This document shows positions 18,638-61,895 of a stretch of 64,000 nt of DNA, piece after piece. Position 1 is the stretch's first letter. Every line of letters starts with the position of its first letter. The notes under the pieces were generated by a model. It saw only the letters and a list, made by a program, of their open reading frames with translations. It made no database searches and was not told where the DNA came from. The translations under genes and the position numbers were made by a program. The DNA comes from Patescibacteria group bacterium (GTDB lineage Bacteria; Patescibacteriota; Patescibacteriia; UBA2591; JAQUPP01). The stretch lies in contig JAQUPP010000001.1 in the NCBI GenBank assembly GCA_028716665.1, forward strand, positions 477,046-541,045. Direction: 5' to 3'.

Positions 18638-20239
18638 ATGGCTCAAGAAATCATTTTATTTTTGACGGGTTTAATGTTTGTGTTATTTGGTATGATCCGA
18701 TTAAGTTATCGGATGCAAATGGTTTTTAATTCCAGAATTCGCCAATACATTAAATATCTGTCTCAAAAACCGATTTACGGAGTGGGGCTCGGCGCCATCT
18801 CTACGGCGATTTTTCAATGCAGCGCGACTATTATTTTTATTACCATCGGTTTGGTCAGCGCCGGAGTGATTAATGTCGGAAATTCATTGGGCATAATTTT
18901 AGGCGCCAATATCGGCACGGTCCTTACCGCACAATTAGTTGCTTTTAAAATTATGAATATCGCGCCGATTTTTTTGATTATCGGTATGATACTTTGGCTT
19001 GCCGCGTCTGCGGAAAAATTAAAAAATATCGGTAAAGTGTTTTTTTATTTCGGACTTATATTTTTCGGATTAGGTTTGATTAATAATGCAATTATTCCTT
19101 TAAAAGGAAACCAAGATTTTTTGAATTTTTTTCAAAGCATAAAAAATCCTATTTTAGGCATATTAATCGGATTCGCAGCGACAGTTTTGGTTCAATCAAG
19201 TTCTATTATTACCAGTATTCTTGTTCTTTTGGGACAGCAATCTTTAATAACTCTTGAAGTCGGTTTACCTTTAATTTTGGGCGCCAATATCGGCGCGACA
19301 ATAATTCCATTTTTATTCAGTTTGGGTGGAGGAATAAATGCCAGAAGAACAGGCATCGCCAATATATTTTTCAAATCCATAACCGTTATTATTCTTTTTC
19401 CGTTTCTTGGTTATTACATCAATTTTATAAAACATTCAACTCCCAGTATTGCTCAGCAAATCGTGAACAGCCATTTCTTTTTTAGTATTTTAGTAGCTTG
19501 CTTGTTTATTTTTTTAATAAAACCATTTGCCAAATTATTGGAAAAAATAATTCCCGGCCAAGAAAAAATATTGCCGCTTTGGTCGGAATTTTTAGACAAT
19601 CGATATTTAAAAGAACCATCATTGGCGTTAGGAGCGATTCAAAAAGAATTAAAAAGAGGAGTGCAGTTAACCGAAGAAATGTTTAAAAAAGCTTTTGAAA
19701 TAATTTCTACTTTTAGCGACAGGGGATATAGAAGTTTAAATTATTTGGAATTGGTCATTGATAATCTTCAAAAAGAAGTAATGAATTTTATAGACAGAAT
19801 ACCCAAGAATAAATTAACTCCGAAAAATGCCGCTCAACTGATTCAATGTTCAAGTATGGTTGACGACATAGAAAGAGTCGGCGATCACATTATAAATTTG
19901 GTTGAACTGGCAAAATATCGCGTTCAATGTAATGTAAAATTTTCCAAAGCGGCCAAGCAAGAAATAGAAGATATAAAAATAGTTTTGAATAAAATTATTA
20001 AAGATTTGATTATTTTAATTGAAATGCCCGATCAAGAGTTGGCGGAGAAAATTTTAAAAGGTAATGAAGAAATAAGAGAAATGATAATTACGGCAAAAGA
20101 AAAACATTTGGAGAGATTCTATCAACGGGAGTGCAATGCGGCGGACGGGCCTATTTTCAATGATATTCTGGTTAATCTGGGAGGGGTGTCCACTCATTGC
20201 GCCAATATGGCGAAATATTATCAAAAACATCAGGGATAA
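18638..20239 (+). CDS. Na/Pi-cotransporter family protein with C-terminal PhoU-like domains
   Basis: Duplicated ILGANIGT motifs in a polytopic membrane region, and a C-terminal helical region with PhoU-like repeats. Confidence 0.75.
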   Translation: MAQEIILFLTGLMFVLFGMIRLSYRMQMVFNSRIRQYIKYLSQKPIYGVGLGAISTAIFQCSATIIFITIGLVSAGVINVGNSLGIILGANIGTVLTAQLVAFKIMNIAPIFLIIGMILWLAASAEKLKNIGKVFFYFGLIFFGLGLINNAIIPLKGNQDFLNFFQSIKNPILGILIGFAATVLVQSSSIITSILVLLGQQSLITLEVGLPLILGANIGATIIPFLFSLGGGINARRTGIANIFFKSITVIILFPFLGYYINFIKHSTPSIAQQIVNSHFFFSILVACLFIFLIKPFAKLLEKIIPGQEKILPLWSEFLDNRYLKEPSLALGAIQKELKRGVQLTEEMFKKAFEIISTFSDRGYRSLNYLELVIDNLQKEVMNFIDRIPKNKLTPKNAAQLIQCSSMVDDIERVGDHIINLVELAKYRVQCNVKFSKAAKQEIEDIKIVLNKIIKDLIILIEMPDQELAEKILKGNEEIREMIITAKEKHLERFYQRECNAADGPIFNDILVNLGGVSTHCANMAKYYQKHQG

Positions 20240-20395
20240 AAATGCAAAATGTAAATATCAAAAATCAAAATGACAATTCAAAATGTTAAAATTATTTCTT
20301 TCTATTTTTAATTTTACATTGTCATTTTACATTTTGATTTTTAAATTTTAAATTATTCCCGTTTTATAAAATAACTCATCTTATCTATCAATGTC

Positions 20396-20432: not shown

Positions 20433-20651
20433 ATGAGTATTGAACTTAAAAGAAAACCAAATGAATCCTTAAATATCTTTTTAAGAAGATTCAGCGAACG
20501 TATTAAAAGAAGCGGCGTACTTGACCTTGCCAAAAAGGGTCAATTTTATGTTAAACCGCAAAGTAAGCTTCTTCGCAGAGCAAGCGCTTTGTGCAGGAAA
20601 ACGTCTCGCGAGAAAATGGAATATTTAAGAAAACTTGGTAAAATTAAATAA
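20433..20651 (+). CDS. rpsU: 30S ribosomal protein S21
   Basis: 72-aa basic protein. ...FLRRFSERIKRSGVLDLAKKGQFYVKPQSKLLRRASA... matches the S21 pattern. It is followed by yqeY, the classic neighbour. Confidence 0.75.
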   Translation: MSIELKRKPNESLNIFLRRFSERIKRSGVLDLAKKGQFYVKPQSKLLRRASALCRKTSREKMEYLRKLGKIK

Positions 20652-20709
20652 AGAGTTTTGTCAAAACTTTCTCGGTTTCTAAATTTAATTTATTAATTAA
20701 TTTTTTAGT

Positions 20710-21188: not shown

Positions 21189-24100
21189 ATGAAAATTGAA
21201 ATAATTCGCCAAACAGCGAACAAAAAACAATTGAAAAAAAATATATTTTTAGGTTTTTTATGTTTATTGATGGTGTCCGGATTTTTATTTTTTATTTTAA
21301 GTCCGGTCATGACAAAAGCGCAAGAAATGAATAATGGTTTGGAAAATTTCCGCAGTGCGGCAAATTATGCCAATACTGATTTGCCGACGGCGATGGGAAG
21401 AATAATGAAAATTGTTTTGGGTGTACTCGGATTGGCGGCAACAGTTATTGTCATTATGGGTGGTTTTAAATGGATGACTTCGGGCGGAGATGAAAATAAA
21501 ATTTCTGAAGCCAAGAAATTAATGATGGCCGGCATTGTCGGCATTTTAATTATTGTTTTAGCTTACGCTATTTCCAGTTTTATTATCGGCAAACTTATGA
21601 GCGTAACTCCTCCTCCACCTCCTTGTGTGGGAAGTTCTTGTCTTAATAATCCATATAACCCTCTACCGGTAGATGTTTTTAAAGTTAAAAGAATTGAGAG
21701 CACCCACGGCAGTTCTTTGAAGGCAGGCTCTTTGCAGACAGATTATCATCAAGATGTTTATTTATGTTCGGCTGTCCAACCGATGTTTAATAATTGGATT
21801 AATGCGGAGGCAATTAAAGATTTGGCTCAGAATGATTTAAGAGTTGAAACAACAACAGGAGGCAATAAAATAAATGGCGAATGGCAAACCAGGGATGGCA
21901 TTATTATATTCAAGCATCAGGATTTATTTAACGAAAATACCGAATATACAACTTATTTGCCCAAAGCGATTCTGAATACAAGCAGTAAAACCTTGCAAGA
22001 TTGTTTGGCTAGCGGAACGGCTAACGGAAAATGTATAGAGAATGGAAGCTATTTTATTTGGAACTTTACAACCGGTACCACCACGGACAAAGTTGCTCCG
22101 ACCATTACTTCCGTTTATCCGATTTTAGACCAAACAAATAAACATTATCCGGATCAAAATGTCTCCCTTAAGCCGGCGATTGAAGTGAATTTTTCGGAAG
22201 CGATTGACGCCACTACAGTTATAGAAGAAGATAGTGTTAATCCGATTTCAGATAATATTTGGCTGGCTGAAATAGACAAACAAGGTGGCATAATTAAAGA
22301 AACTTTACTCCCCGAAGAATTTACAGTAAATATGAGTGATAATGGATTTAGATTAAATTTAAGCGATGCAAATTTATTAAAACCGTTTACATGGTATAGA
22401 ATTCATGTCAGCGATATTAAAGACCTTTGTTCAAATAAAATGGCCGCGGCAATGGAATGGGAGTTCCAAACCAATGATCGGGCACCCGGAATATCATCTG
22501 TCTATCCGGAAGGTAATAAAGTTTGTCTTGATTCTAATATTAGTATTGTCTTCAATACTCAAATGTATGACAATAATATAGACATAGAAATTAGTGATGG
22601 TGTCGATACTTTTACTACGAATATGACGCCAAGCGTTATCGGGGTGCCATATCAAAAAGTGATTACAGGCGGAATTTTTAAAGTGGACAATCCTAAAGAT
22701 CCGATTGATAACGGATTTAGGATTTTTACTTTTGAGCCGACTAATAATTTAAAAAGCAATACGAAGTATACGATAAAAATTAATACTGATTTGGTAATTG
22801 ACCAAAAAGGCGCTCTTTTAGCTCGCGAATGGAATTTTACGACCGCTACGCCGGAAACTTGTTTGTGTTCTCCTTGGATTTCTTCTTTGAATCCCGAACA
22901 AGGTTCAAATGGCCAATGTTTGACTATTAGCGGCGCCTGTTTTACTGGTACTGATTTACAATCTGCTGATCCGAAAATTGAATTTATCTTAAATAGTGTT
23001 TCTAAACCGGCAACAATTGGCGGAAAAGATAAAAATTATATTACTACCGTTGTCCCCTCAGATTATATAAAAAGCGATCAACCCCAAGTTCAAGTGACAA
23101 TTAAATATAGAACTGGAGGAGAAGAATTAGTTAGCAATCCATCCGAATTTACTGTTGATAGCGATGAAACAGCTACCGGTCCTTGTCTTTGGTCAATTAA
23201 TCCTTCCAGCGGTTATCCAAGTGAAACTTCAGTTAATTTAAGCGGTTTGCGTTTTGGCCCTGCTTCAGGTCAAACCACGCAACAAGTTAAATTTTATAAT
23301 AATCAATCAGCTTCTTTTAAAACTTGGTCAGATAACCTGATAGAAAAAACTTTGGTTCCAACGGATGCTGTGACCGGTAATGTCGCGATTATTAATGATG
23401 CAGGTACCAGTAATGGAATACCCTTTACAGTTTTACCGCATGTCGGATCGGCAGGATCTTTATGTCGAGCCAGCGAGTGTCCTTCTAATCCATTGAATAC
23501 TTGTACGGCTCCATATCAATGTAAAAATGAAAGTACTGACACTTGCCGCTGTTGTTGTGATCCAAAAAATGATTTATGCGCTTCACCACTTCATTGTTTA
23601 GCTGATCAAGGTAGTTGTAACAGCACTAGCGCAATCAATCCACGTGGTCTTTGTTGCGGTTGTACGGGAGATGATCAATGCGGCGCCGGCGCCGGTTGCG
23701 GGATGCTTGACTCAAATCGTTGCTGCTATAATCAGCCAACTGTTAAGATTTCTGCCTGCTCTAATCCTCAAAATCCTTCAAAAAAGATTGGCAACAATAC
23801 GGCTATTTCCATAATTTTCAGTGATCTAATGAATTATGGAAGTTTAAAAGAAGAAAATATTAAAATTTTTGAAGAAACAGCGGGAATTTGCAAACTTGAT
23901 AAAATTTGCGAACAAGAAACAAGTTGTAATTGTCAAGTTAAGAATGCGACAGTATGCACAGTCAATAAAAATAATAAAGAGTGTAATTATGAGCATATTC
24001 CTGTTCAGGGAAGAATTATTAATTCAGATGTTCAGAGAGAAGAAATATGTAAATTGGCTACTTTGAATTGTGATAAAGACAAAGGATGTGACTGCAAAAA

Positions 24101-27100
24101 TGGTAATAAAATAGTTTGCACGGTAAAAAAAGATAAAGATTCTTGTGCTTATTATGTTTCTGATCATACTGAAACTGTTTTTTATCCATCAGAGTGTAGG
24201 CTGGAAGAAGAGACTCTTTATAAAGTGACAATCAGAGGGGGGATTAACGGAAAAGGAATAATAAGCAAATCAGGTGTTTCCATAAAGGACAAGGAATTTA
24301 CGTTTACTACCGGAAATAAATATAATTTTTGCGACGTGGATCAAATTAAGGTTTCACCAGTTTCAACTATAATTAAGAGTTTTAAAGAAATAAAAAAATT
24401 TACTGCTCAGGCCAAAGATACAGAAAATAATTCAATTTGTGTTCCTGGATTTATTTGGGGTTTTCCCGATGATATAAATGTGGCAAATTATATAGAATCA
24501 TGCAGTCCTGCTAATTGTGATTGTATTAATTCTCAAGGACCCAGTTGCGCTAGAAATCTAAAAAAGGTTTTAATGAATCCTGCTATTGAAGCAAACGTTC
24601 AGGCGCAAGCTGAAGGAGCAACCGGAGTTTCTGCGTTTACTGCCGGAAAAAATGGCTTGGCAAATCTTGAAGTTGATTTAATTTCACCGGTGATTACGAG
24701 TATTAGTCCGGAGGAAGGCACTAATAATCCAATTATTCCAACTTATGTGACAATTACCGGAATAAATTTTGGTTCAAGTCAAGGCGAAAGTAAAATAATG
24801 TTTGGTAATGTGACTGCGGATATTGCTTGTCAGAATTGGTCTGACAAGAGTATTGTCGCCATTGTGCCGCCAAGTTTAGATAAAGGGTTAAATCAAGTGA
24901 CAATTTTTCAATCAGATCAGGGAGCGAGTAATCAGGTGGGTTTTAAGGTGCAAGATTCTTTTCATCCGGCGATTTGCAAGCTTCAACCGAATTTCGGTAA
25001 AACGGGCGACATTGTTTCTATAAATGGAAAAAATTTTGGAGATACGATGGCTAATAACGGTAAAATTATTATTGGAGATCCTTTAAATGGGGGAGTAGAA
25101 TTAGTGAAAACGGTAAATAATAAATCTAATCCTAATATTTTATCTTGGTCTAATCAGGAAATAAAAATAAAAATGCCTGAAGTTGCTCAAAATGAAGCTG
25201 AGGTGACTGTCTCGGTTCCTTCGCCGATTGAAGCCGGTAATCCTTTAAAAATTAGCAATCCCGTAACATTTCACAAAGCCCCGATAATTACGAGTATTAC
25301 GCCCGGTGATGGTCCGAAAAAAACATGGATAACAATTCATGGTTATAATTTCGGCTCTGTGAAGGGTGTAGTTTCTTTTAAATATAATAATACTAATTAT
25401 TCAGCTGCTGATTTACCAACTTACTGCGGATCGTCTTGGAGCGATACGCAAATTATAGTTGAAGCGCCGCAAATTTTGCCGGACGTGGCGACTGATCAAG
25501 ATTCTTATAATCTTCAAATTGAGGTTGATACCGATTATGGAATAGCCAGTCAGTCGGTTAAATGGACACTTAATAAAAAATTATTGGGTCCGGCGCTTTG
25601 CTCGATTAATCCGTCCAATGGCTGGCCGGGATTTAGTCCGGTTACGATTCAGGGTGAAAGATTTAATTTAGCCAGTGGCGAATCCGCCCGAAGTCTTGTC
25701 TTTAATAAAGACAAGGAAGCGGCAATTTTAACTTGGTCAACTGATGGCGCGATAAACAATATCGCTGTTCCGCAAGACGCAACCAGCGGCAATGTAGTGG
25801 TCACAAAAACAATTCAGACCAACAGCCGTCAAAAATGTATCGGTATTTCTTTTGGCGGAAAGTGTTTTGGTAAAAAGCAAACGGTTTGGGATGAAATTAA
25901 AATGACCAGTAATCCTCTTCATTTTAATATTGTTCCTTTGGGTGGTTGCGGTATTTTCGGCACTTTGGATACTCGAGACAGGGATCCGATTTTAGTTGGC
26001 GAAAAAGAGAATGAATATCCGCCTGTTAATCCTTTTGACAGCCAAAGTGTAGGAACGCTCGCTACTGACGGAAAATATCTTTACACAAAAAGTTGGTCAG
26101 GTTATGATCAATGGCCAAATGGAGTTTACGGATGTACTAATGGCAGCGGCTGTGAAGATAATATGATTAGTAAAATCGGTACCGGTTATCAAGGAACTGT
26201 GTCCGGTAAAATTTATAAAAAAGATTTGGCAACAGTCAATCACAGTCTTACAATGACTTATTTTCCTGATGATTGGCTTTATAACGGTTATACTAATAAT
26301 GGACATAATTTAGAAAGAGTGAATGTGATCACTGGTGCGGTTGATTATGTTGAGATTCCATCGTCAACGCCTTTAATGAATCGGGAAACCGGACGAGATT
26401 TAACTGAATTATATGAAGATCTTTTAATCACTTCTGACGGGAAATATGTTTATAATTTAGCTCATGGTATTAATGGCTCTTATTATAATGGTTTTAGAGT
26501 TAAAATTTTTGACCCGAATAAAAATTGGCAATTAGTGAAAGAATGGACTTCAATTGGTTCGGGCAGTTATATTCCATCTTTTTATACTGACGGTATTATT
26601 GCTGACGGAGACTATATTTATGCGATTCAATGGGGCACCGCAGGAGGCGGAGGTTATCTGATTAGAAAGATGGAGGCTCTAACCGGTAAAGTAATTGCCG
26701 AGTGGACGAGTGAACAAAAACAACTTAATAATCCGCAAGGTAAAAATACGGATATTATTTCCGGACAATATGATTGGGTTAATAATAAAGTTTGGTTGGG
26801 CGACTTGGTTGACCGTAGGAATGCCGATAATAAGTGCGACCAATGTTCGGGCTATTGTCATTGCACTCCGGCTTATATTTATCGTTATGCTTGCCAGGGA
26901 GCAGGTCAGTTGGGCTTACCTCAAGTAATTGGAGATGCCAATTGCGAAACTAATCTTCCGAGTCCTTCACCGGCTGCGGATCTATCCGCTGTTTGCTCTA
27001 ATGCCGTTATCAGTGCGCGTTTTAATCAAAAAGTGAGCGGTTTGACTCCTTTAAATATTCTAGTTCAAAAATGCAATAATGGTTCAGATAATTTTAACTC

Positions 27101-30100
27101 TCAAAATTGTACTGCCGACGTGGCAGGTAGTATTTCTTTAGACAGTTTTAATAGTCAAGGTTTTATTTTTACGCCAACTAATAATTTAGACGCGAATTAT
27201 TGGTATCAGATTACGTTAAAAAGCGGTTCCACCGGAATTAAAAATCTTAATAATTATTCTTTGGATGGCAATAAAAATAATATTCAAGACGGCGAGGATA
27301 ATTATTTTTGGCATTTTAAAACAGGATCAAATCTTTGTTCGCCCGAGAAAGTTAAAATATCTGAAACAGTACTAGTCGGTGAAAAAGCGGGAATAATTAT
27401 TAAACCAGGAACTAGAAATTATTTTGCTCAAGCTTTTGGTCCAAATTGTCAAATTCTAAAATCCGCCAGTTTTTCATGGACTTGGACCTCGACAAAATCT
27501 GAATTTGCCACAGTCGGCAGTTCGGTTAACAATCAGACAACTGCGACAGGAGTTGATTTGGGAGAAACAGATATAACCGTAACAACAACTCAGCCGGATC
27601 CTTCTGATGCCACTAAAGAAATTAAATTATCAAATAAGACCCATTTGATTGTTGCTACTAGGCCAACAGCAATAAATTATCCAGCGGTTGGCAGTACTAA
27701 TATTTGTCTTAATACTTCAATCTCCGCTACTTTTGACCAATTAATGGATGGATCCACGCTTAATTCAAAGACAATTAAATTTTATAAAGTAGTTCCCGAT
27801 TTGGATGAAGAAGAAGAAGGATCTCCGCTTTCATTTAACCAAAATATTAATAAAAATATTTTGGTTAGATTTTTTAATAATTTAAAAAATGTTTTTCTAA
27901 AGAAAACTGAAGCGGCGGAAAAAATTAATATTTCCGTGGTTGATGATGCAAAACAAACTAAAGTTTATTTAAACATTGATTTATTAGATGAAAAGAGTAC
28001 TTATAAAATAGAAATTCTTGGGGGAGAGAATGGCGTAAAAAGTAAATATGGCATTGGGATGACAGCAGATAAATCTTGGACGTTTATCACCGGCAAGGAA
28101 ATTTGTAAATTGAGTGAGGTAAAAACATCCATAACCGGCAATTCTGAAAAATGTACGGTTGGCGCGGATAAAAAATCGGCAGAATGTTCCAAGGAAAATT
28201 CAACAGTTAATTTTAAAGCTATTGCCAAAAATAATAGAGGAGAAGAAATTCAAAGCGTGACCGGTTATCAGTTGGCTTGGTCATGGAAATCTTCTGATAC
28301 AAATGTGGCGACTATTTCTAACACAGTTAATAATGCTGTTGCTACGGTGAAAAATAAAAATGGTTCAGCCCAAATTACGGCCACGGCTGAAATAACGGGG
28401 GGGAAAGAAAAAATTTCCAATAGTGCGTCAATTAAAGTTTTCCTTTGTGAAGTTCCATGGATTTTTGAAGATAAACTCGGTCAAGCGGAGACGAAAGAGC
28501 CTTATACTAATTTCAGATTGCAATATTGCCAGGGAGATTTAAAGAAAAATTTGGTTTCTAATGGAAGTTTTGAAATAGATAAAACCAAAGATGGCATTCC
28601 CGATAATTGGTTAAATCATGGTAAAGAATATAGTACTGATGGTAAAAATAGTTATTCCGGTAAAGCGGCTATCAAGCCGGGTTATTCATGGTGCCAACCC
28701 AGTGATTCATCTGTTATGCAATATGACATTACTATAAAACCAAATACTTTTTATACGTTTTCAGCTTATGTTAAGGGTGAAAATATATATGCGCCGCGCA
28801 TAGATATAAGATTTTATCATGATATTTCCGAAGATCCTCATCAATTTTCCAATAATTGCGCTTGGTATAATGGTGGAGTAGATAAGGCTGATATAAATTG
28901 CAGTTTTTCCGGTGTTTTGGATAAAGATAGTTACAAACGAATTTATTTTACTTTTAATTCCGGATCGAATGATAAAATTCAATATATATCCCTCCAAGGC
29001 GTGGGAGGCGTTTGCAACCCGGCCCAAGCTTGTAATTGTGGAAATTCTTCAGGAAAACCTTGTGATGCCAGTGCGTGTCCGCGCGTAGTTTGGTTCGATA
29101 ATCTCCAATTGGAAGAAGGTAAACAACCAAGTGAATATCAGGATTTTCCATCCTTACCGTATCTTGTCGCAACCGAGACTACGAAATCAAGCGTAGTTAA
29201 AGAATTTATTTTTACCAATAGTGTTAATAATGACGTGATTGGTCTCAAGGTTTTAAAAAATCCTGATTATCTCACTCCTTTTGAATGGTATAAGAAAAAT
29301 GTACCCAATCCCGGTTCACCGACTTCATTAATTGTTAATGGTTATCAGGCGGTTAAAGAAGGAAGAACGGTTTATGTCGGCGCGACAAATGTTGATAATA
29401 ATGAAATAATTGAAGGTCTGATTTATCTCATCTCATATTCTGATAACGCCAAGCCGGAAACAATTGATATTTTTAATAAATTAGTTGAAGATTGGCAATT
29501 TAATACAAATAAAACTGTTGATAAACAACTGATCCAACGGGATTTGTTCCGACTTTATGATTTAAGAACAATGAGCCAAAAATTGGCGGATTATAAATCA
29601 AATTATGATTATTATCCAAAACTTGAGTCGGGCAGTTTTATGAAAGGAATAACCGATTCCAAATGGCCTTCTTGGAAAAATCCTCAAGGGCAATTTATTT
29701 CCAGTATGCCGAATGATCCGATTAATCAATTCTTAAACCCGACAAGCGGTTATTGCGCCGGTTGCAATAATGCTAGCCAATGCGATGGAACATGTTATAA
29801 TCAAAGTACGAGTAAATACGAGTGTCCGGTCGGTTCGCACGTTTATCAATACATGGTTAAAGATGGAGGGGCGGATTATAGTTTGTATTTGAATTTTGAG
29901 ACAGATTCTTTGAAATGGCAGAAAAGTTGCAGCGGCATGGATCAATCCAACTGTGAAATTCATTATTTATGCGGTTGGGCGGCCAATAAATGTCAGTCAA
30001 AATTATTCGGTTATAGCTCAGATATTTACAAATGTTTTGATTCTGTCTATGGTCCGGTTATTGGGAAAACAATAATAGATTCATATGGATCTATTAGCGG

Positions 30101-30125
30101 AATGAATACTAATTATCAGCAATAA
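21189..30125 (+). CDS. Giant multi-domain extracellular protein (2978 aa) with an N-terminal pilin-like two-TM hairpin, Ig-like/IPT domains, a Cys-rich module, a beta-propeller-like region, BIG2-like domains and a CBM/laminin-G-like domain
   Basis: A single ORF with no SD. The N-terminus is ...IVLGVLGLAATVIVIMGGFKWMTSGGDENKISEAKKLMMAGIVGILIIVLAY. Cys-dense segments include CRCCCDPKNDLCASPLHCL. An IPT-like segment is PVITSISPEEG...ITGINFG. The CBM-like segment runs GSFEIDKTKDGIPDNWLNHG...VWFDNLQLEEG. Confidence 0.8.
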   Translation: MKIEIIRQTANKKQLKKNIFLGFLCLLMVSGFLFFILSPVMTKAQEMNNGLENFRSAANYANTDLPTAMGRIMKIVLGVLGLAATVIVIMGGFKWMTSGGDENKISEAKKLMMAGIVGILIIVLAYAISSFIIGKLMSVTPPPPPCVGSSCLNNPYNPLPVDVFKVKRIESTHGSSLKAGSLQTDYHQDVYLCSAVQPMFNNWINAEAIKDLAQNDLRVETTTGGNKINGEWQTRDGIIIFKHQDLFNENTEYTTYLPKAILNTSSKTLQDCLASGTANGKCIENGSYFIWNFTTGTTTDKVAPTITSVYPILDQTNKHYPDQNVSLKPAIEVNFSEAIDATTVIEEDSVNPISDNIWLAEIDKQGGIIKETLLPEEFTVNMSDNGFRLNLSDANLLKPFTWYRIHVSDIKDLCSNKMAAAMEWEFQTNDRAPGISSVYPEGNKVCLDSNISIVFNTQMYDNNIDIEISDGVDTFTTNMTPSVIGVPYQKVITGGIFKVDNPKDPIDNGFRIFTFEPTNNLKSNTKYTIKINTDLVIDQKGALLAREWNFTTATPETCLCSPWISSLNPEQGSNGQCLTISGACFTGTDLQSADPKIEFILNSVSKPATIGGKDKNYITTVVPSDYIKSDQPQVQVTIKYRTGGEELVSNPSEFTVDSDETATGPCLWSINPSSGYPSETSVNLSGLRFGPASGQTTQQVKFYNNQSASFKTWSDNLIEKTLVPTDAVTGNVAIINDAGTSNGIPFTVLPHVGSAGSLCRASECPSNPLNTCTAPYQCKNESTDTCRCCCDPKNDLCASPLHCLADQGSCNSTSAINPRGLCCGCTGDDQCGAGAGCGMLDSNRCCYNQPTVKISACSNPQNPSKKIGNNTAISIIFSDLMNYGSLKEENIKIFEETAGICKLDKICEQETSCNCQVKNATVCTVNKNNKECNYEHIPVQGRIINSDVQREEICKLATLNCDKDKGCDCKNGNKIVCTVKKDKDSCAYYVSDHTETVFYPSECRLEEETLYKVTIRGGINGKGIISKSGVSIKDKEFTFTTGNKYNFCDVDQIKVSPVSTIIKSFKEIKKFTAQAKDTENNSICVPGFIWGFPDDINVANYIESCSPANCDCINSQGPSCARNLKKVLMNPAIEANVQAQAEGATGVSAFTAGKNGLANLEVDLISPVITSISPEEGTNNPIIPTYVTITGINFGSSQGESKIMFGNVTADIACQNWSDKSIVAIVPPSLDKGLNQVTIFQSDQGASNQVGFKVQDSFHPAICKLQPNFGKTGDIVSINGKNFGDTMANNGKIIIGDPLNGGVELVKTVNNKSNPNILSWSNQEIKIKMPEVAQNEAEVTVSVPSPIEAGNPLKISNPVTFHKAPIITSITPGDGPKKTWITIHGYNFGSVKGVVSFKYNNTNYSAADLPTYCGSSWSDTQIIVEAPQILPDVATDQDSYNLQIEVDTDYGIASQSVKWTLNKKLLGPALCSINPSNGWPGFSPVTIQGERFNLASGESARSLVFNKDKEAAILTWSTDGAINNIAVPQDATSGNVVVTKTIQTNSRQKCIGISFGGKCFGKKQTVWDEIKMTSNPLHFNIVPLGGCGIFGTLDTRDRDPILVGEKENEYPPVNPFDSQSVGTLATDGKYLYTKSWSGYDQWPNGVYGCTNGSGCEDNMISKIGTGYQGTVSGKIYKKDLATVNHSLTMTYFPDDWLYNGYTNNGHNLERVNVITGAVDYVEIPSSTPLMNRETGRDLTELYEDLLITSDGKYVYNLAHGINGSYYNGFRVKIFDPNKNWQLVKEWTSIGSGSYIPSFYTDGIIADGDYIYAIQWGTAGGGGYLIRKMEALTGKVIAEWTSEQKQLNNPQGKNTDIISGQYDWVNNKVWLGDLVDRRNADNKCDQCSGYCHCTPAYIYRYACQGAGQLGLPQVIGDANCETNLPSPSPAADLSAVCSNAVISARFNQKVSGLTPLNILVQKCNNGSDNFNSQNCTADVAGSISLDSFNSQGFIFTPTNNLDANYWYQITLKSGSTGIKNLNNYSLDGNKNNIQDGEDNYFWHFKTGSNLCSPEKVKISETVLVGEKAGIIIKPGTRNYFAQAFGPNCQILKSASFSWTWTSTKSEFATVGSSVNNQTTATGVDLGETDITVTTTQPDPSDATKEIKLSNKTHLIVATRPTAINYPAVGSTNICLNTSISATFDQLMDGSTLNSKTIKFYKVVPDLDEEEEGSPLSFNQNINKNILVRFFNNLKNVFLKKTEAAEKINISVVDDAKQTKVYLNIDLLDEKSTYKIEILGGENGVKSKYGIGMTADKSWTFITGKEICKLSEVKTSITGNSEKCTVGADKKSAECSKENSTVNFKAIAKNNRGEEIQSVTGYQLAWSWKSSDTNVATISNTVNNAVATVKNKNGSAQITATAEITGGKEKISNSASIKVFLCEVPWIFEDKLGQAETKEPYTNFRLQYCQGDLKKNLVSNGSFEIDKTKDGIPDNWLNHGKEYSTDGKNSYSGKAAIKPGYSWCQPSDSSVMQYDITIKPNTFYTFSAYVKGENIYAPRIDIRFYHDISEDPHQFSNNCAWYNGGVDKADINCSFSGVLDKDSYKRIYFTFNSGSNDKIQYISLQGVGGVCNPAQACNCGNSSGKPCDASACPRVVWFDNLQLEEGKQPSEYQDFPSLPYLVATETTKSSVVKEFIFTNSVNNDVIGLKVLKNPDYLTPFEWYKKNVPNPGSPTSLIVNGYQAVKEGRTVYVGATNVDNNEIIEGLIYLISYSDNAKPETIDIFNKLVEDWQFNTNKTVDKQLIQRDLFRLYDLRTMSQKLADYKSNYDYYPKLESGSFMKGITDSKWPSWKNPQGQFISSMPNDPINQFLNPTSGYCAGCNNASQCDGTCYNQSTSKYECPVGSHVYQYMVKDGGADYSLYLNFETDSLKWQKSCSGMDQSNCEIHYLCGWAANKCQSKLFGYSSDIYKCFDSVYGPVIGKTIIDSYGSISGMNTNYQQ

Positions 30126-30154: not shown

Positions 30155-30760
30155 ATGCCAGATGAAATAAAAAATTTAGATGCGGATTTTGCCAATCAAG
30201 ATGGGGGAGTGGAAGATATTTTTGAGGATGTTGAGCGTAAGAATTTTATTTCTGATGAAAATAAAAATTCCGACAATTCATCGTCAAATCGCAAGAAATT
30301 CAATAAGAATTTTGTCCGTGTTGTTTTTATTATTATCATTATCGCGATTGTCGGGGCGGGAGTTTATTATTACGCTTTGCCGAAAATAAAAAATTTAATG
30401 GAACAGGCAAAAATAAAAAAACTCAATCAGACCGGGCAGCCTCAAGCAAATTCGGAAGACAAGACGGCGCCGATAATCATTATTAAGCCGATTGAAATGG
30501 CTCCTGATGCGGATGGTGACGGCTTGACGGATGAAGAAGAAATCACACTGGGCACTGATAAAAATAAATCTGACACTGATAACGATGGTCTTTCCGACCG
30601 AGAAGAAGTTAAAGTTTATTTAACAAATCCCTTAAAACTTGATACTGACGGAGACGGCATTAAAGACAGTCAGGAAATTAAAAATAATACTGATCCGAAT
30701 AATTCAAACCCAAACGCCAAATTATTGGATTTACAAAAAGAAATTGATAAATTAAAGTAA
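30155..30760 (+). CDS. Single-pass membrane protein with thrombospondin type-3-like Ca-binding Asp repeats
   Basis: Acidic N-terminal cytosolic segment, then a TM helix, then DADGDGLTDEEE...DTDNDGLSDREE...DTDGDGIKDSQE repeats. Confidence 0.6.
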   Translation: MPDEIKNLDADFANQDGGVEDIFEDVERKNFISDENKNSDNSSSNRKKFNKNFVRVVFIIIIIAIVGAGVYYYALPKIKNLMEQAKIKKLNQTGQPQANSEDKTAPIIIIKPIEMAPDADGDGLTDEEEITLGTDKNKSDTDNDGLSDREEVKVYLTNPLKLDTDGDGIKDSQEIKNNTDPNNSNPNAKLLDLQKEIDKLK

Positions 30761-30762
30761 AG

Positions 30763-30945
30763 AGTTTTGTTGAAAATTTAGAGGCTGAAAGCCGAATAAA
30801 TTATCATTACAAAACCTTTACCCCCTCCTTTTGAGTGCTTTTAAATTTATGTATTACGTTCTATTTCATAAAATTACAAAAAAACCATATATTGGTTTTT
30901 CGCAAATCTAAAAAAATAATCAAAAGCATCTAAAAGGAGGGGGTA
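30763..30945. repeat. Structured intergenic repeat element, copy A (outer AGTTTTGT/ACAAAAC arms, inner GNRA hairpin, then a 14-bp CCCCCTCCTTTT/AAAAGGAGGGGG stem closing a ~100-nt loop)
   Basis: The motif taaagagttttgt...acaaaacctttaccccctcctttt ... aaaaggagggggtactcaaa is shared with 61681-61845. Confidence 0.6.
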
Positions 30946-31086
30946 CTCAAATTATTAATAAAATTTTTCGCGTTATTGCCAAGCGAGCGAGGGAAAAGAA
31001 AATTTATTTTCTTTTTCGAGCAAGCGCAGGCAACACAGATTTAATAATCTTTATAAATAACTTAAAAATTTTAAAAAATTTGGTAT

Positions 31087-32673
31087 ATGCCAGAAGAAAC
31101 ACCAATTCAACCGGAACCACAAAAAACAAATACTTCCGCGGTGCAGGATATTTTTTCTAATCCTCCGGCGGCGGCGAAAAGGGAGATTACAGAAGAAGTG
31201 ACTCAATACGGGACTACCGGAGAGATGATTTACGTTATGCCGGAAAAATTTCGTAAAGCTCAGCGCAAGCTATCAAAAAAAGATAAAAATAAATCTCTTA
31301 TTTTAATTTTGTGTCTTTTAATTATTATTATCGGCGGAGGATTGGGATTTTATTTTTGGATAAAAAATTATCATCCGAATATTCCGGTTATCACTCAAAT
31401 TCCGGCCATTACTCAACCGGATGAAAATAATTCTTCTTCTGTCCCGGTCGCAAATACTTCAATTGAACAGACTCTAAAAGCGGAAATAAAAGATCAATCA
31501 GGAGAATCTGTCTCTTGGTTGGAATTCTATTTACCTGCCGGAGCGGTCGATTCAAATTTAAAAATTGAATTAACTTCAGAACCGACAACCAATAATGATA
31601 CATATAATGATTATAAGGTTATTGGAGGAATTTATAAAATTCAATCCACTAATCTTGTTTTGCAAAAATCCGCAACCTTAAGAGCTTTTTATCATAATAA
31701 AATTATTGAAAGCAATTGGGAAAGCGATATTGCCTTGGGTTATTTAAAAGATAATATTTGGACTCCCTTATCAAGCACGCAAGATGCGGAAAATAATTTA
31801 GTCACTGTTCAATTAGACCTTCTGCCCTCCGATACATTTGCTTTGATTGTTTCAAAAAATAAAGCAACGCCTAAAATAGAAACATTTCAAGTGGCTCCGC
31901 AAATTTCTTCCACGATTGATTCTGATCAAGACAGTCTAACCGACACTGAAGAAACGATTTATCGTACGGGTATTAATAATCCTGATACTGATGGCGATGG
32001 CATAAGTGACGGTCAAGAAATAGTTAATTTAACCGATCCGTTGCAAGCGGGGGAGAATAAGCTTTCGGCCGCCGGTTTGGTTAATATTTATACCAACTCC
32101 ACTTTTTCCTACAGTTTTTTCTATCCATCTTCTTGGATAACCAGGGCGATTCCGGAAACTAACAACGAAGAAGTTTTGGTGATTACCAATACCGGAGAAT
32201 TTTTCAGCGCGACGGTGGAAAAAAATCCCGACCAATTGTCTTTGATTGATTGGTATTTAAAACAATCGCCGACAACAGAAAGAAATTTATTGACTAATAT
32301 TACGGTTAATAATCAACCTGCTCTTTGGAGTTCGGATCATTTGACAATTTATATTGCCAAAGATGAAAATGTCTATACGGTTTCATATAATGTCGGCACT
32401 GAAAAAGAGGCGAATTTCAAGGCTACTTTTAAAATGTTAATTAACAGCTTTCAATTCATCATTCCGTCCTCACCCGTTTCATCAAGGCCTGATGGAACTT
32501 TAATAAAATATCCGGACAGCGCCATGGTTTATTTGATTGAAAACGGCAGTAAAAGAGTTTTTAAATCAGGAGAAATTTTTGAAAAATTAGGTTATAAATG
32601 GGAAAATGTGATAGAAATTTCAGCGGATGAAACTTTTTTGGATGGTTCTATCATTGATGAAAATGAATCATAA
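31087..32673 (+). CDS. Single-pass membrane/surface protein with a TSP3-like Asp repeat and the shared C-terminal ~50-aa module
   Basis: TM at about residue 70-95. Repeat is DSDQDSLTDTEE...DTDGDGISDGQE. C-terminus is PDGTLIKYPDSAMVYLIENGSKRVFKSGEIFEKLGYKWENVIEI. No SD; start context is ttaaaaaatttggtatATG. Confidence 0.65.
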   Translation: MPEETPIQPEPQKTNTSAVQDIFSNPPAAAKREITEEVTQYGTTGEMIYVMPEKFRKAQRKLSKKDKNKSLILILCLLIIIIGGGLGFYFWIKNYHPNIPVITQIPAITQPDENNSSSVPVANTSIEQTLKAEIKDQSGESVSWLEFYLPAGAVDSNLKIELTSEPTTNNDTYNDYKVIGGIYKIQSTNLVLQKSATLRAFYHNKIIESNWESDIALGYLKDNIWTPLSSTQDAENNLVTVQLDLLPSDTFALIVSKNKATPKIETFQVAPQISSTIDSDQDSLTDTEETIYRTGINNPDTDGDGISDGQEIVNLTDPLQAGENKLSAAGLVNIYTNSTFSYSFFYPSSWITRAIPETNNEEVLVITNTGEFFSATVEKNPDQLSLIDWYLKQSPTTERNLLTNITVNNQPALWSSDHLTIYIAKDENVYTVSYNVGTEKEANFKATFKMLINSFQFIIPSSPVSSRPDGTLIKYPDSAMVYLIENGSKRVFKSGEIFEKLGYKWENVIEISADETFLDGSIIDENES

Positions 32674-39129: not shown

Positions 39130-39371
39130 ATAACTATCCGGAATATAAATTTTATCCACGCCTCAAATCCGAAGAGGGTTTGTATAAAAAAATAGTTTAG
39201 TTCACGGAAGCGCCTTCGTTCCTCGACAAGCTCGGGACTTCGGCTTCTTCTAATTTTAAATTGATTTTATTCAGAGATTTGAAGCGGGATTCTCAAGGTT
39301 ATAGCAAAAATTGCTTCATTTTTTTGAACTCGCAATTTTTGATAACCTTGGAAAGTTTTCCACAAGGGGAT

Positions 39372-39399
39372 TTGACTTTTACTAAATACCTGCTACAAT
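39372..39399 (+). promoter_or_regulatory. Sigma-70-like promoter for greA
   Basis: TTGACT, then 16 nt, then TACAAT, about 45 nt upstream of the greA ATG. Confidence 0.5.
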
Positions 39400-39444
39400 G
39401 ATATGAACTAATACCAATTAACTCGGTGTTTTTTTAATTTATTT

Positions 39445-39903
39445 ATGACATTTTTCTTAACGCCTGAAGGGCGAAAAAAAATTGAACAAGAATTGGAAGA
39501 ATTAAGAAGCGTAAGAAGGCCGCAAGTTGCGGACCGGATTCGTGCTGCCAAAGAATTGGGGGATTTAAGTGAAAATGCGGAATATACGACAGCCAAAGAA
39601 GAACAGGGATGGATTGAAAATGAAATAATAAGATTGGAAAATTTATTGAGAAATGTTGAAATTATAGATAACCACCAGAAAAATAAAGATGTGGTCAGAA
39701 TAGGTTCAACGGTTAAAATTAAAATTAAAGATGATTTTAAGACCTTTATGATTGTGGACAGCGAAGAATCTGATCCGGCGCAAGGCAGAATTTCCTATGA
39801 ATCTCCTATGGGACAAGCTCTTTTAAATAAGAGACTTAATGAAAAAATTGAATTTCAGGTTCCAAGCGGTTCTACAACTTTTACGATTATTGAAATTAAA
39901 TAA
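39445..39903 (+). CDS. greA: Transcription elongation factor GreA
   Basis: N-terminal coiled-coil (...ELRSVRRPQVADRIRAAKELGDLSENAEY...) plus a C-terminal FKBP-like domain. Confidence 0.85.
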   Translation: MTFFLTPEGRKKIEQELEELRSVRRPQVADRIRAAKELGDLSENAEYTTAKEEQGWIENEIIRLENLLRNVEIIDNHQKNKDVVRIGSTVKIKIKDDFKTFMIVDSEESDPAQGRISYESPMGQALLNKRLNEKIEFQVPSGSTTFTIIEIK

Positions 39904-40011: not shown

Positions 40012-40272
40012 ATGAAGGAACCATTGAGATTTAATTACTTTTCGAGTATGATAATAATCATATTCGGGGTAACAATATTGATGGGAGTATTTTACCTTAT
40101 CGGTTTTGGACTTTGCCAAATTGCAGTTATCCCAAGCATAGTAACTCAATGTCTCGGATTTGAGATAATGAGTTGTTTTATGCCGATGTTGGTTGGCGAT
40201 TTGGCAGTATGTGTGGTTTTGGCAATCTGGTTTGCTTATTGGTATGTTAACATTTTAATCTGGGGTTCCTAA
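40012..40272 (+). CDS. Small Cys-containing membrane protein (two TM segments)
   Basis: AAAGGAGGTG SD 6 nt upstream. The 86-aa protein is hydrophobic, and a terminator hairpin follows. Confidence 0.5.
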   Translation: MKEPLRFNYFSSMIIIIFGVTILMGVFYLIGFGLCQIAVIPSIVTQCLGFEIMSCFMPMLVGDLAVCVVLAIWFAYWYVNILIWGS

Positions 40273-43637: not shown

Positions 43638-44036
43638 TTATTTTTGTTCTTTTGGAGCCGGCAAAGCCTTTATAAAAGGATATCCGATGGTAATTAACAT
43701 TAAGAAATCACCCGGATAAGCCTTAGACATTTGGCGTAGAATTTCGAAACGTATTTTTTCTTCTTCCTTTCTACTCAAAAGTTTATATTTTTTTATATAA
43801 TCTTCCAAGCTCGATTTTAACTCCAGTTTGCATAATCTTCTATCCATTTCATCTACCTCTTTCTTCATGTCATCAATTAATTTACCCAACTGATCCATGG
43901 ATTCACCCAGTTGATCAAAAGGTTTTTTTATACTTGATAACCAATTACTGGAACGCCATAGAAATATGATTATGGCAATCGTAGCAGCTAAAGAAAGAAT
44001 CGGTTGAAGAAATCTAAAAATTTCAAGAACAATCAT
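43638..44036 (-). CDS. Membrane-anchored coiled-coil protein (N-terminal TM, charged helical core, C-terminal hydrophobic segment)
   Basis: AAAGGAGG SD. A consensus promoter lies upstream. The 132-aa protein begins MIVLEIFRFLQPILSLAATIAIIIFLW... Confidence 0.55.
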   Translation of the reverse strand: MIVLEIFRFLQPILSLAATIAIIIFLWRSSNWLSSIKKPFDQLGESMDQLGKLIDDMKKEVDEMDRRLCKLELKSSLEDYIKKYKLLSRKEEEKIRFEILRQMSKAYPGDFLMLITIGYPFIKALPAPKEQK

Positions 44037-44111: not shown

Positions 44112-45305
44112 ATGCTCACTTGGATTGAAATTAAAAAACAAGCGATTAAACATAATCTTGGCCAATTCAGGAAAATTATCGGGCCGAAGGTGAAATTAAT
44201 GGCTGTGGTTAAAAGCAATGCTTACGGCCACGGAATAGTTGAAATAGCCAAAATTGCCTTAAAATCAGGGGCTAATTGGCTGGGGGTGGTTAATTTAGAC
44301 GAAGCGCTGATGCTTAGGCGGGCGAAAATCAAAGCCCCGATTTTTATTTTAAGCTACTGGCCCCTCACTTGCGGGCAAGAGAGAGACTACTGGGAAATGA
44401 TTGACCAAGTAAAAGAGGCGATTAAGCAAAATATTGATTTTCCTGTTTATACTTTTGAGCAAGCTGAATTTTTATCAAAAACCGCTAAAAGCATTAGAAA
44501 AAAAGTTAATATTCATATTAAAATTGATACCGGCGCGACCAGAATAGGCGTCTCAACCGAAGAAGCGGTTAATTTTATAAAAAGTATTAAGAATCTGCCA
44601 AATTTGAATATTGTCGGAATTTTTACTCATTACGCCGAATCAGAATCAAAAGATCAATCTTATACCAATCAACAAACGGAAAAATTTCAAAAAATATTAT
44701 CTTTGTTAAAATTTTTCGGCATTAAAATACCCTTGATTCACAGCGGTTGTTCGGCTTCAACAATTAATAATTCAAAAACATTTTTTAATTTGGTCAGAGT
44801 CGGCCTTGGCATGTACGGCCTTTATCCATCTGATTATACGAAAGTAAATGCTCAAAATAAAAAAAAATCCGCCCGAGGCGGATCGGCCTTGGGTCGAAAA
44901 GTTAAATTTGAACCGGCCTTATCATGGAAAACAAGAATTATTCAAATTAAAAATGTGCCTGCCGGAACTTTTGTCGGATATGACAGAACTTATCAAACAG
45001 ATAAAACGACAAAATTGGCTATTTTGCCAATCGGTTATTTCGACGGTTATGATCGCCATCTTTCAGACTGCGGCCAAGTTTTGATTCGCGGTAAATATTG
45101 CCCGATTCGCGGAAGAATTTGCATGAATTTAATAATGGTTGATGTCAGCAAAATACCTGACATCAAAGAAGGGGAAGAAGTGGTTTTAATCGGTAAACAA
45201 AATAAAAACGAAATTACAGTTGATGATTTGGCCAAGAAAATAGGCACTATCAATTACGAAGTAGTTTGCAGGATTAATTCATTAATTTTAAGAAAATATG
45301 TCTAA
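44112..45305 (+). CDS. alr: Alanine racemase
   Basis: MLTWIEIKKQAIKHNL...AVVKSNAYGHG (the PLP-Lys motif). I moved the start to 44112, because the tracked start at 44004 overlaps the upstream gene. Confidence 0.85.
   Translation: MLTWIEIKKQAIKHNLGQFRKIIGPKVKLMAVVKSNAYGHGIVEIAKIALKSGANWLGVVNLDEALMLRRAKIKAPIFILSYWPLTCGQERDYWEMIDQVKEAIKQNIDFPVYTFEQAEFLSKTAKSIRKKVNIHIKIDTGATRIGVSTEEAVNFIKSIKNLPNLNIVGIFTHYAESESKDQSYTNQQTEKFQKILSLLKFFGIKIPLIHSGCSASTINNSKTFFNLVRVGLGMYGLYPSDYTKVNAQNKKKSARGGSALGRKVKFEPALSWKTRIIQIKNVPAGTFVGYDRTYQTDKTTKLAILPIGYFDGYDRHLSDCGQVLIRGKYCPIRGRICMNLIMVDVSKIPDIKEGEEVVLIGKQNKNEITVDDLAKKIGTINYEVVCRINSLILRKYV
44859..44901. repeat. In-frame GC-rich palindromic insertion element inside alr, copy 1 of 3
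   Basis: aaaaaaaaatccGCCCGAGGCggatcgGCCTTGGGTCgaaaag. It encodes KKKSARGGSALGRK, and the stem CCCGAGGC/GCCTTGGG includes a G-U wobble. Confidence 0.6.
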
Positions 45306-48227: not shown

Positions 48228-48235
48228 TTAACAGC

Positions 48236-56494: not shown

Positions 56495-56601
56495 AATGTT
56501 AATTTTTTTAGGCGAGGGTTATATCGCGAGAAAAGCGTTTCGCAGGCCGAAGCGGTCCGCCAGCTGGCGGAGTCTTTTTGAGCGATTGTGACCCGAGCCC
56601 G

Positions 56602-61551: not shown

Positions 61552-61680
61552 ATGATTTTTTTTGATTATTATTTTATTAAAATAAACATTATTTGACCTG
61601 TCTTAATTTTAGTCCTTAAATAGAAATTTTGCAATACCCATTGCCATATTTTAGCATATTTGTTAAAATAATTATAAAGA

Positions 61681-61845
61681 GTTTTGTCTCCGGACGTTAA
61701 GTCGGAGCTACAAAACCTTTACCCCCTCCTTTATCCCAACAATAAACTTTTGATAATCATTAGGGTAAAAGGCGAAGCCGCTTCGCTTACATAAGATTAT
61801 AAATCAATAGACCTTCGATGGAGTAAAGGAGGGGGTACTCAAAAT
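61681..61845. repeat. Structured intergenic repeat element, copy B (AGTTTTGT-CTCCGGAC-gtta-AGTCGGAG-ct-ACAAAAC, then a 13-bp CCCCCTCCTTT/AAAGGAGGGGG stem)
   Basis: It shares arms and stem sequences with copy A at 30763-30945. Both lie upstream of SD-less genes with the start context aaaaaattt(t)ggtATG. Confidence 0.6.
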
Positions 61846-61895
61846 TTTAGTAAAAATTTATTCAACTTCGTCTCTAAATTTTAAAAAATTTTGGT

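Follow-up and report, generated by a model that had tools for sequence, protein, structure and literature searches.

A modular three-hairpin repeat between stop and start codons in Patescibacteria

A 64,000-nucleotide stretch of DNA from a Patescibacteria group bacterium (GenBank assembly GCA_028716665.1, contig JAQUPP010000001.1, positions 477,046 to 541,045 of the forward strand; hereafter the window) contains three full copies, named A, B and C, of an intergenic element built from three hairpins. With a probability of about two in three, we read this element as a modular family of palindromic repetitive DNA of Patescibacteria (Parcubacteria/Paceibacteria-type) that is gained, lost and reshuffled at the DNA level and is selfish or semi-domesticated, not a gene-specific regulator. 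The evidence lies in its architecture, its copy number and lineage range, its presence and absence at the same sites in related genomes, the swapping and flipping of its central module, a nuclease gene nested in that module and stem pairing that lacks an RNA-type excess of wobble pairs. An earlier note on the window had described what are now copies A and B and had offered two identities for them. The first, a small mobile element with a promoter or start region, is largely supported, as the family is multi-copy, modular, variable in presence and ends at start codons, but no promoter could be identified within it. The second, a conserved cis-regulatory RNA, is not supported in the sense of a gene-specific regulator: downstream genes are unrelated, the same sites are empty in close relatives and the stems show a Watson-Crick-only pattern.

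Three abutting hairpins from stop codon to start codon

The element spans the interval from an upstream stop codon (or a transcription start, tRNA end or terminator) to the next start codon and always lies in the sense orientation. A stop-side arm, P1, and a start-side arm, P3, flank a central ACCC^GGGT site holding an exchangeable body, P2. Copy A (30758-31086, plus strand) shows the three hairpins abutting one another. Its P1 (30758..30820; covariance-model match of 70 bits, E 7e-15) pairs UAAAG-A-GUUUUGU with ACAAAAC-CUUUA, and it opens with the TAA that terminates open reading frame (ORF) 30155-30760 and is followed by AGAGTTTTGT (30758-30770). The interior of P1 holds a GAG/GAA internal loop and a GGCUGAAAGCC hairpin. 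The earlier note had described a GNRA-loop hairpin here; the inner hairpin GGCTGAAAGCC is present, but it is only GNRA-like and not a clean tetraloop, because RNAfold closes GGCU/AGCC with a 3-nt loop. ACAAAAC precedes TACCCCCTCCTTTT (30809-30833), and P2 (30820..30944) is formed by the stem ACCCCCTCCTTTTGAG/CTAAAAGGAGGGGGT around about 95 nt. This body, of the class 'CCCTCCTTT', encloses a AAAAACCA-tatat-TGGTTTTT hairpin at 30880-30899 (AACCA-tatat-TGGTT at 30883-30897), and AAAAGGAGGGGGTA (30932-30945) closes the long-range stem of 14-22 bp. P3 (30945..31086) pairs its arm ACTCAAATT with AAATTTGGT at 31073-31084, has a branched apex that includes a 30968-31038 hairpin, and is followed by AT (2 nt) and the ATG of ORF 31087-32673. 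All features that the earlier note had listed for copy A, including the ATG at 31087 without a Shine-Dalgarno sequence, are found where it had placed them. What it had overlooked are the stop codon inside P1, the third hairpin, which occupies the roughly 130 nt before the ATG and closes beside it, a third full copy on the minus strand and a decayed mini copy.

Copy B (61675..61895, plus strand) consists of P1 at 61675-61721, P2 at 61721-61836 with a stem of the same class as in copy A, and P3 at 61837-61895, which abuts the ATG of ORF 61896-62750 (284 amino acids (aa), upstream of rodA). This second copy, previously given as 61681-61898, is real: it shares with copy A the 23-mer ACAAAACCTTTACCCCCTCCTTT and the 19-mer AAAGGAGGGGGTACTCAAA, each occurring exactly twice where 0.00 and 0.02 occurrences are expected. 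Directly upstream of copy B lies a sigma-70-like promoter, TTGCCA-17-TAAAAT (61641..61669, plus strand, 10 of 12 matches), with a predicted transcription start at about the first bases of P1. Copy C (57939-57745, minus strand) comprises P1 at 57939-57893 (UGAAUAGUUUUGU/ACAAAACAUUCA), P2 at 57893-57813 (ACCCGCCCA/TGGGCGGGT) and P3 at 57812-57745, abutting the ATG at 57744 of ORF 56602-57744, which encodes a 380-aa protein; its upstream neighbor is dnaE. The 5' hairpin of copy C is almost identical to that of copy B, whereas its long stem, CACCCGCCCA/TGGGCGGGTA, differs on both sides from the TACCCCCTCC/GGAGGGGGTA of copies A and B. Between the dnaE stop codon and P1 of copy C is an extended -10 element, TGGTATAAT (57949-57941, minus strand).

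The density is about three to four copies in the 64-kb window. A decayed mini copy (20649-20709, plus strand) consists of the TAA of rpsU and AGAGTTTTGTCAAAAC, a bare P1 stem without P2, followed by a short AU-rich P3-like hairpin that ends in ..TTTTTTAGT before the yqeY ATG (20710); its covariance-model score of 13.4 bits (E 0.45) is not significant alone. The rpsU gene itself, for ribosomal protein S21, is an unlisted 71-aa ORF (20435-20651, plus strand) whose stop codon TAA opens the mini copy, and the gene order rpsU then yqeY is found in many Firmicutes. The spacer between the 380-aa gene and thrS (56495..56601, minus strand) holds a probable decayed remnant with the order TAAC.., GCTCAAAAAG (a P3-like start), a CTCCGCCAGCTGGCGGA hairpin, an end in ..TTAACATT and ATG; the CTCCGCCAGCTGGCGGA hairpin is the P3 apex in relatives. 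As CTCCGCCAGCTGGCGGA or TTCGCCAGCTGGCGAA, this GC-rich hairpin also recurs as a P3-tip sub-module at four comparison loci from other genomes (L009, L025, L038 and L058; such loci and contigs carry L numbers throughout), its window instance lying at 56558-56569 within the hairpin 56554-56570.

Further copies were sought with one pattern scan of species-representative genomes and a covariance model of P1 run on 362 kb of fetched DNA. The scan yielded 46 loci, 33 of them with the full architecture, in metagenome-assembled genomes (MAGs) labelled Patescibacteria, Paceibacterota, Minisyncoccales, Liptonbacteria or Sungiibacteriota, or bearing doubtful Saccharibacteria or Gammaproteobacteria labels. 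The covariance model gave 53 matches with E < 1e-5, including variants outside the pattern. Together, pattern scan and covariance model establish a family with more than 55 copies in more than 20 Patescibacteria genomes, and one MAG (JBAZMD01) holds at least 20 copies in its sampled parts. A phage origin was considered and rejected, as a scan of viral contigs gave two chance matches, both without P2 and without TAAAG. The comparison with Rfam that had been suggested returned no family matching the element in the window, copy A or four related loci; an E-value scan of copy A produced only spurious microRNA-like long-hairpin matches, a gathering-threshold scan of the four loci only tRNAs, and neither Rfam 15 nor the searched literature contains a description of the element. 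Gracilibacteria MAGs carry a repeat of about 250 nt in near-identical copies (L002, 3678-3713 and 5341-5376; L022, 3895-3930) with a chance-like pattern match (AGTTTTGTTCCGTTTCACTCCACAAAACTTTCACCC); lacking the P2/P3 architecture, it is probably an unrelated repeat family.

Across the family, P1 begins at the U of the stop codon with UAAAG-A-GUUUUGU/ACAAAAC-CUUUA and is 43-67 nt long. P2 begins at the next base; its ACCC...GGGU base carries a body that varies from 28 to 300 nt. P3 follows directly, pairs R-C-(N)-CAAWUUU with AAAWUUG-G-Y and closes 0-2 nt before the AUG, giving a total of 150-330 nt per copy. P1 opens with the in-frame stop codon of an upstream ORF in 37 of 57 copies; 9 more have a stop within 24 nt, and the remaining 11 follow tRNAs, terminators, promoters or another element. 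All resolved copies are sense-oriented, P1 lying on the stop-codon side and P3 on the start-codon side. At L008, where genes converge, an inverted P1 arm stands at the position of P3, so that each stop codon has its own P1. In L049 (about 2230-2277, minus strand, and downstream) two elements stand in tandem without a gene between them; the P3 end ..TTTTTGGT merges into the next P1, TAAAGGGCTTTGTC, sharing a T.

Whole-element minimum-free-energy folds of the three window copies are far more stable than shuffled sequences (z = -7.7, -5.2 and -7.4), and in all three the same fold appears, P1, P2 and P3 abutting without linkers. In P1, 96.0% of alignment cells are paired, with two-sided changes in 9 of 16 pairs; the corresponding values are 96.3% and 10 of 12 for the base of P2 and 95.8% and 10 of 11 for that of P3, the P2 and P3 percentages being inflated because a pairing-maximizing script selected these arms. 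Pairing in all three stems far exceeds shuffled and slid controls, and the P3 partner chosen by the script ends at the ATG in 30 copies, an independent check as the ATG was not supplied to it. Within P1, the stop codon's middle base and its partner change together (TAA/TTA in 41 copies, TGA/TCA in 3), and outer-stem variants include GUUUUCU/AGAAAAC and UAAUGAAUUUUGU/ACAAAAUCAUUA. The opening base of P3 (G or A) varies in step with the C or U beside the AUG (16 A-U and 8 G-C pairs). In many copies an alternative local hairpin, ACGCAAAATT..AATTTTGCGT, competes with P3. When reverse-complemented, P3 gives only weak matches to the P1 covariance model (E 1e-4 to 1e-2), and the terminal bases differ (TAAAG.. 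against ..GGCAT).

The compensatory changes that the earlier note had asked for therefore exist, but their pattern is that expected of a DNA palindrome. G·U pairs are not in excess over A·C mismatches (7 against 16 in P1, 9 against 8 in P2 and 1 against 3 in P3), and of 30 copies only 9 have a sense RNA that folds more stably than its antisense, the mean difference (+3.1 kcal/mol) favoring antisense. On these tests, both of small samples, the stem pairing looks like DNA palindromy without an RNA-type wobble excess.

Placement, empty sites and exchange of the central module

The genes downstream of the element are mutually unrelated and include those for S13, L25, ParA, L33, MurA, L17, S4, S7, QueA, NusA and Tmk, among others. 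Within the ribosomal-protein operon of one MAG, copies stand at L2|S19, S19|L22 and S17|L14. Two copies start at the base after a tRNA gene and one precedes a tRNA-Asp gene, so a coding gene on either side is not required. Copy C follows the direction of its gene in a region where the GC skew stays non-negative, which gives no sign of a replichore switch there.

All three window copies are missing at the same sites in relatives with 87-95% protein identity, which have spacers of 5-50 nt there. Site A, between the TSP3 gene and a 528-aa gene, is filled in the window and empty in L067 and L068 (87% aa identity), where the alleles read AAAG-TAA-ATAATTTTACT-ATG and TAA-ATAATTTTACTATT-ATG with spacers of 11 and 14 nt. 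At site B, upstream of the 284-aa gene, the window reads ...aatta[TAAAGAG...TTTTGGT]ATGGGAG and L047, 87% identical in the 284-aa gene and 95% in the neighboring DnaE, has the empty allele ...TAAAATaattaCATGGGAG; the same promoter as that of copy B is present, its TAAAAT followed by 6 nt and the ATG. In L048 and L049 site B carries the same P3 with a different P2 class, and both contigs end inside the element. Site C, between dnaE and the 380-aa gene, is filled in the window and empty in L055-L057, which keep the TGGTAAAAT promoter and a 30-nt leader; the 8-nt ATAGTTTT occurs both at this junction and at the element's 5' end. Between the 380-aa gene and thrS, where the window has its decayed remnant, the element is intact in L050, L056, L057 and L058 (with two P2 classes) and L055 has a 5-nt spacer. 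Element copies are 80-100% identical between the compared genomes. In the four comparisons of filled with empty sites the native spacer is replaced rather than interrupted, and inspection of the junctions revealed only short microhomologies (TAAA, ATAGTTTT).

P2 bodies fall into discrete classes that are exchanged between copies and genomes. They occur in either orientation with respect to P1: L041 carries its body the other way round from copy B, as does L046 from L029. The G5/C5 stem that had seemed striking in this genome is indeed present in copies A and B, but it is one of several interchangeable P2 classes. At the position of its GGAGG, other copies have TGGGCGGG, AACAGGG or GTGCTGGG; this GGAGG is not a sequestered ribosome-binding site, because the sequence there is unrelated in other copies.

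The P2 loop of L026 consists, from one arm to the other, of an 85-aa ORF, whose homologues carry the GIY-YIG domain PF01541 in precomputed Pfam annotation. These homologues are common in Patescibacteria, often on very short contigs. The gene lies exactly between the P2 arms ACCCCCTCACTCGAAA/TTTCGAGTGAGGGGGT in L026, L059, L062 and L063; in the last three, P3 and then the ATG of the following gene come after the arms, and a P1 variant precedes the nuclease gene, in a divergent form in L059. These three loci are on long contigs: L059 lies upstream of rplJ, L062 belongs to the complete Sungiibacteriota genome CP066690.1 and L063 to a Yanofskybacteria MAG. A further homologue, 58% identical, lies outside the three-hairpin frame and likewise has an inverted repeat, of 11 bp, at its two sides.

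Mobile DNA, RNA module or promoter cassette

From these patterns we infer how a repetitive DNA family of this kind might persist. The palindromic arms would be maintained as DNA, either as hairpin or cruciform structures or through repair between arms. Copies could spread and trade modules through recombination or template switching with one another, perhaps triggered by the nested GIY-YIG nuclease, and be lost by deletion between short repeats that would leave TAAATAATTTTACTATG-type footprints. The L067 spacer TAA-ATAATTTTACT-ATG is precisely what such a deletion would leave if it joined the TAAA with which P1 opens to the one in a ..TTTAAATAATTTTACTATG P3 end. Since the element fills the stop-to-start gap in the sense orientation, it is expected to be co-transcribed. 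The transcript would form three abutting hairpins, looping out 150-330 nt and placing the stop codon (or 5' end) beside the AUG. We propose that the insert is tolerated even in ribosomal-protein operons because this fold preserves re-initiation or leaderless-like initiation. In terms of selection, a copy would be tolerated only if its transcript folds out so that stop and start stay adjacent; alternatively, insertion would be guided by short homology at stop and start.

Several points weigh against repetitive DNA as the explanation. The four filled/empty comparisons show no target-site duplication and no clear terminal inverted repeats, and some empty sites may be scars left where former copies were deleted, which bears on gain versus loss. 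Random transposition would not produce the gene-locked orientation and the codon-exact boundaries, which suggest that the transcript is under selection or that insertion is highly specific. The GIY-YIG link comes from five loci, and the 85-aa protein is a catalytic domain without a DNA-binding domain. No transposase or nuclease gene and no Y1 transposase domain was found in 40 scanned window ORFs, a scan that did not extend to the two largest (4603-11547 and 21189-30125) or to the rest of the genome. The P1 sequence is conserved across distant lineages, and a trans-acting factor could bind it as RNA or DNA. The script-selected arms and the small samples of the strand and wobble tests belong here as well.

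Much of this would suit a functional intercistronic or leader RNA, a three-hairpin module selected as such and spread only secondarily in the manner of a repeat. It might act as punctuation, RNase III or another nuclease cutting P2 while P1 shields the upstream mRNA at its 3' end and P3 the downstream mRNA at its 5' end, or as a stop-start coupling device for ribosome re-initiation without a Shine-Dalgarno sequence. Boundaries exact at stop codon and ATG, the strict sense orientation even of copy C on the lagging strand, tolerance within ribosomal-protein operons, the high pairing with its two-sided changes, the covarying stop codon, the scarcity of Shine-Dalgarno sequences in the genome, the P1 at each stop codon of the convergent L008 genes and the local hairpin competing with P3 all speak for such a module. 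It sits poorly with empty orthologous sites in close relatives, copies before and after tRNA genes, flipped or swapped P2 bodies, a protein-coding gene within P2, the lack of both a G·U excess and an Rfam match, and antisense strands that fold as well or better, and we regard it as unlikely, though as the main rival. Far less probable is a portable promoter and start-region cassette whose own promoter, for instance AT-rich -10-like hexamers in the 3' arm of P3, would make new and possibly leaderless units. The copies in L007, L027 and L033 do stand directly after intrinsic terminators, which leaves no space for a promoter in front of them, AT-rich sequence with TAnnnT hexamers makes up the 3' arm of P3, and the empty site-B allele looks leaderless. 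Against it, there is no -35/-10 pair at a conserved position, promoter-like matches in copy A are no commoner than in shuffled sequence, the best-placed hexamers would put the transcription start within the ATG or past it, and the recognizable promoters of copies B and C lie outside the element, upstream of P1. In addition, P3 arms covary, which a promoter would not need, and the copies in ribosomal-protein operons need no promoter. We give almost no credence to a gene-specific riboswitch, attenuator or mask of a ribosome-binding site (GGAGG hidden by CCUCC). The AAAGGAGGGGG/CCCCCTCCTTT pairing of copies A and B does resemble Shine-Dalgarno and anti-Shine-Dalgarno, but that stem lies 60-140 nt from the ATG and is one P2 class, with copy C and most others unrelated there; the unrelated downstream genes, the absence at orthologous sites in close relatives and the Rfam result oppose a riboswitch or leader likewise.

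Other identities were rejected on inspection. Mimicry of the 16S rRNA ends (AGAGUUUUGUC like AGAGUUUGAUC; CCUCCUUU) is unlikely, as CCUCC occurs in one P2 class only and a possible GAGU/GCUC pairing does not covary. The 36-nt short P1 is reminiscent of a CRISPR repeat, but P1 length varies and there is no array. As an integron attC site, the GTTTTGT/ACAAAAC arms misfit the RYYYAAC/GTTRRRY core sites, and the flanks are syntenic housekeeping genes (dnaE, thrS, mreC, rodA, ribosomal proteins). Neither the window nor the four related loci gave an Rfam match to a group I or II intron, no copy contains a site resembling an intrinsic terminator, and no internal promoter motif lies at a constant position in the inspected P3 arms.

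Returning to a repeat maintained as DNA, a bolder form of that reading is a new class of mobile element, in which a palindrome-bracketed GIY-YIG nuclease rides in, or mobilizes, a three-hairpin cassette that lands exactly between stop and start. It would be phenotypically silent through transcript folding, with an intron-like neutrality achieved without splicing, and in genomes largely without Shine-Dalgarno sequences it may have undergone partial domestication as a general intercistronic coupling or processing module. We put this forward tentatively, as possible but doubtful.

Patescibacteria genomes are among the smallest and most streamlined of bacterial genomes, and each copy adds 150-330 nt of non-coding DNA, even between universally conserved genes of ribosomal-protein operons. 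If selfish, the repeat would invade the most constrained intergenic positions through structural "invisibility" to gene expression, and the many small GIY-YIG genes of Patescibacteria would gain a possible role. If partly functional, it would be a general mRNA punctuation or stop-start coupling signal in organisms largely without Shine-Dalgarno sequences. In practical terms, the element breaks metagenome assemblies, as in the contigs L048 and L049, its strong "covariation" can mislead screens for regulatory RNAs, and differences in occupied sites provide strain-level markers.

Genomic setting and relation to known systems

The window is an AT-rich segment of a bacterial chromosome with rpoD, mreC, pbp2, rodA, dnaE and thrS. 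RNase P RNA of the bacterial class A (48231-48624, plus strand; 121 bits, E 1.7e-36) is the only Rfam family above the gathering threshold, and ARAGORN found no tRNA or tmRNA in the window. The earlier note was right that the start at 31087 lacks a Shine-Dalgarno sequence, but this is not a special trait of genes behind the element: about 37 of 42 window genes are likewise without one. Because only five genes carry a strong AGGAGG (3579-4298 and 43638-44036 on the minus strand; 11700-12326, 40012-40272 and 47829-48128; 6-8 nt from the ATG), the genome seems to use two modes of translation initiation. These five encode mostly small proteins of unknown function, one being an SPFH/Band 7 protein. 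A 117-aa protein with an RRM_1 motif (E 9e-24; 1455-1808, plus strand) is a candidate general RNA-binding protein.

Other structured or repeated sequences occur in the window. Upstream of greA (39445-39903), a 315-nt non-coding region (39130-39444) is 68% identical to L041 1646-1775, and a minus-strand hairpin in it (39299-39345) has the GAG/GAA inner motif of long-form P1 and a weak covariance-model match (E 0.04); the region may represent a further conserved non-coding RNA or what is left of an element. The Na/Pi-cotransporter gene is followed directly by a long AT-rich inverted repeat (20238-20357) with 47-nt arms, 79% complementary, and AAAATG/CATTTT-like units. Two 40-nt terminator-like palindromes (AAAAACCCTGCAATTTTTTTGCAGGGTTTT; 3141-3180 and 3538-3577), 98% identical and 397 nt apart, flank a short region with an 80-aa minus-strand ORF. 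A GC-rich 29-nt hairpin repeat (GCCCGAGGCNGRTCGGCCTTGGGYCGAAA; 44871-44899, 52454-52482 and 53415-53443) is 72-90% identical among its copies and may be a second small family of palindromic repeats; one copy is inside the alanine racemase ORF, and the other two, with T runs behind them, are where the miaA, PrsW and radical-SAM genes end.

Among known systems, classical miniature inverted-repeat transposable elements share with the family many similar copies whose presence differs between strains, and they differ from it in that the four filled/empty comparisons show no target-site duplication and the orientation here is single. The REP/BIME sequences of enterobacteria are extragenic palindromic units in mosaics, co-transcribed, often right after stop codons, GC-richer than the sequence around them, present in dozens per genome, variable between strains and mobilized by RAYT. 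The element likewise consists of palindromic mosaic units that follow stop codons, are co-transcribed and vary between strains. Its units are, however, larger (45-300 nt compared with palindromes of 20-40 nt), without a GTAG-type head, exact in their stop-to-start span and locked in orientation to the gene; no RAYT gene was seen in the scanned window ORFs, and the sole associated gene is the GIY-YIG nuclease in P2. BOX of Streptococcus pneumoniae is built from boxA-boxB-boxC modules, and Correia/NEMIS transcripts of Neisseria are cut by RNase III and can alter expression. Both are, like the element, modular and strongly folding intergenic repeats co-transcribed with their neighbors. The element differs in having no TA duplication or clear terminal inverted repeats, a single orientation, a stop codon in P1, an ATG at P3 and a flippable P2.

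Free-standing GIY-YIG genes (seg of T-even phages) and those nested in group I introns also form an intergenic insert of variable presence, with the gene in a loop that leaves the fold undisturbed. In contrast to these homing systems, the 85-aa protein is a catalytic domain only, the carrier has no splice signals or Rfam intron match and most copies are gene-less. PATEs derived from IS200/IS605 share hairpins near both ends, the lack of target duplication, strand-specific insertion and non-autonomous copies; here, however, no TnpA was seen, copy C follows the gene and not the direction of replication, and the right end is always at a start codon. Three further systems offer functional analogies: the initiation region of Escherichia coli rpsA, with three hairpins and no Shine-Dalgarno sequence, places structured RNA immediately before the AUG; the intercistronic RNase III sites of T7 are hairpins between cistrons; and the ribosome shunt of cauliflower mosaic virus involves termination at the foot of a structure and re-initiation on its far side. 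None of the three is a multi-copy dispensable repeat or has sequence or structural homology to the element. Its stop-to-start architecture and GIY-YIG association could define a new class among the intergenic palindromic repeats of bacteria.

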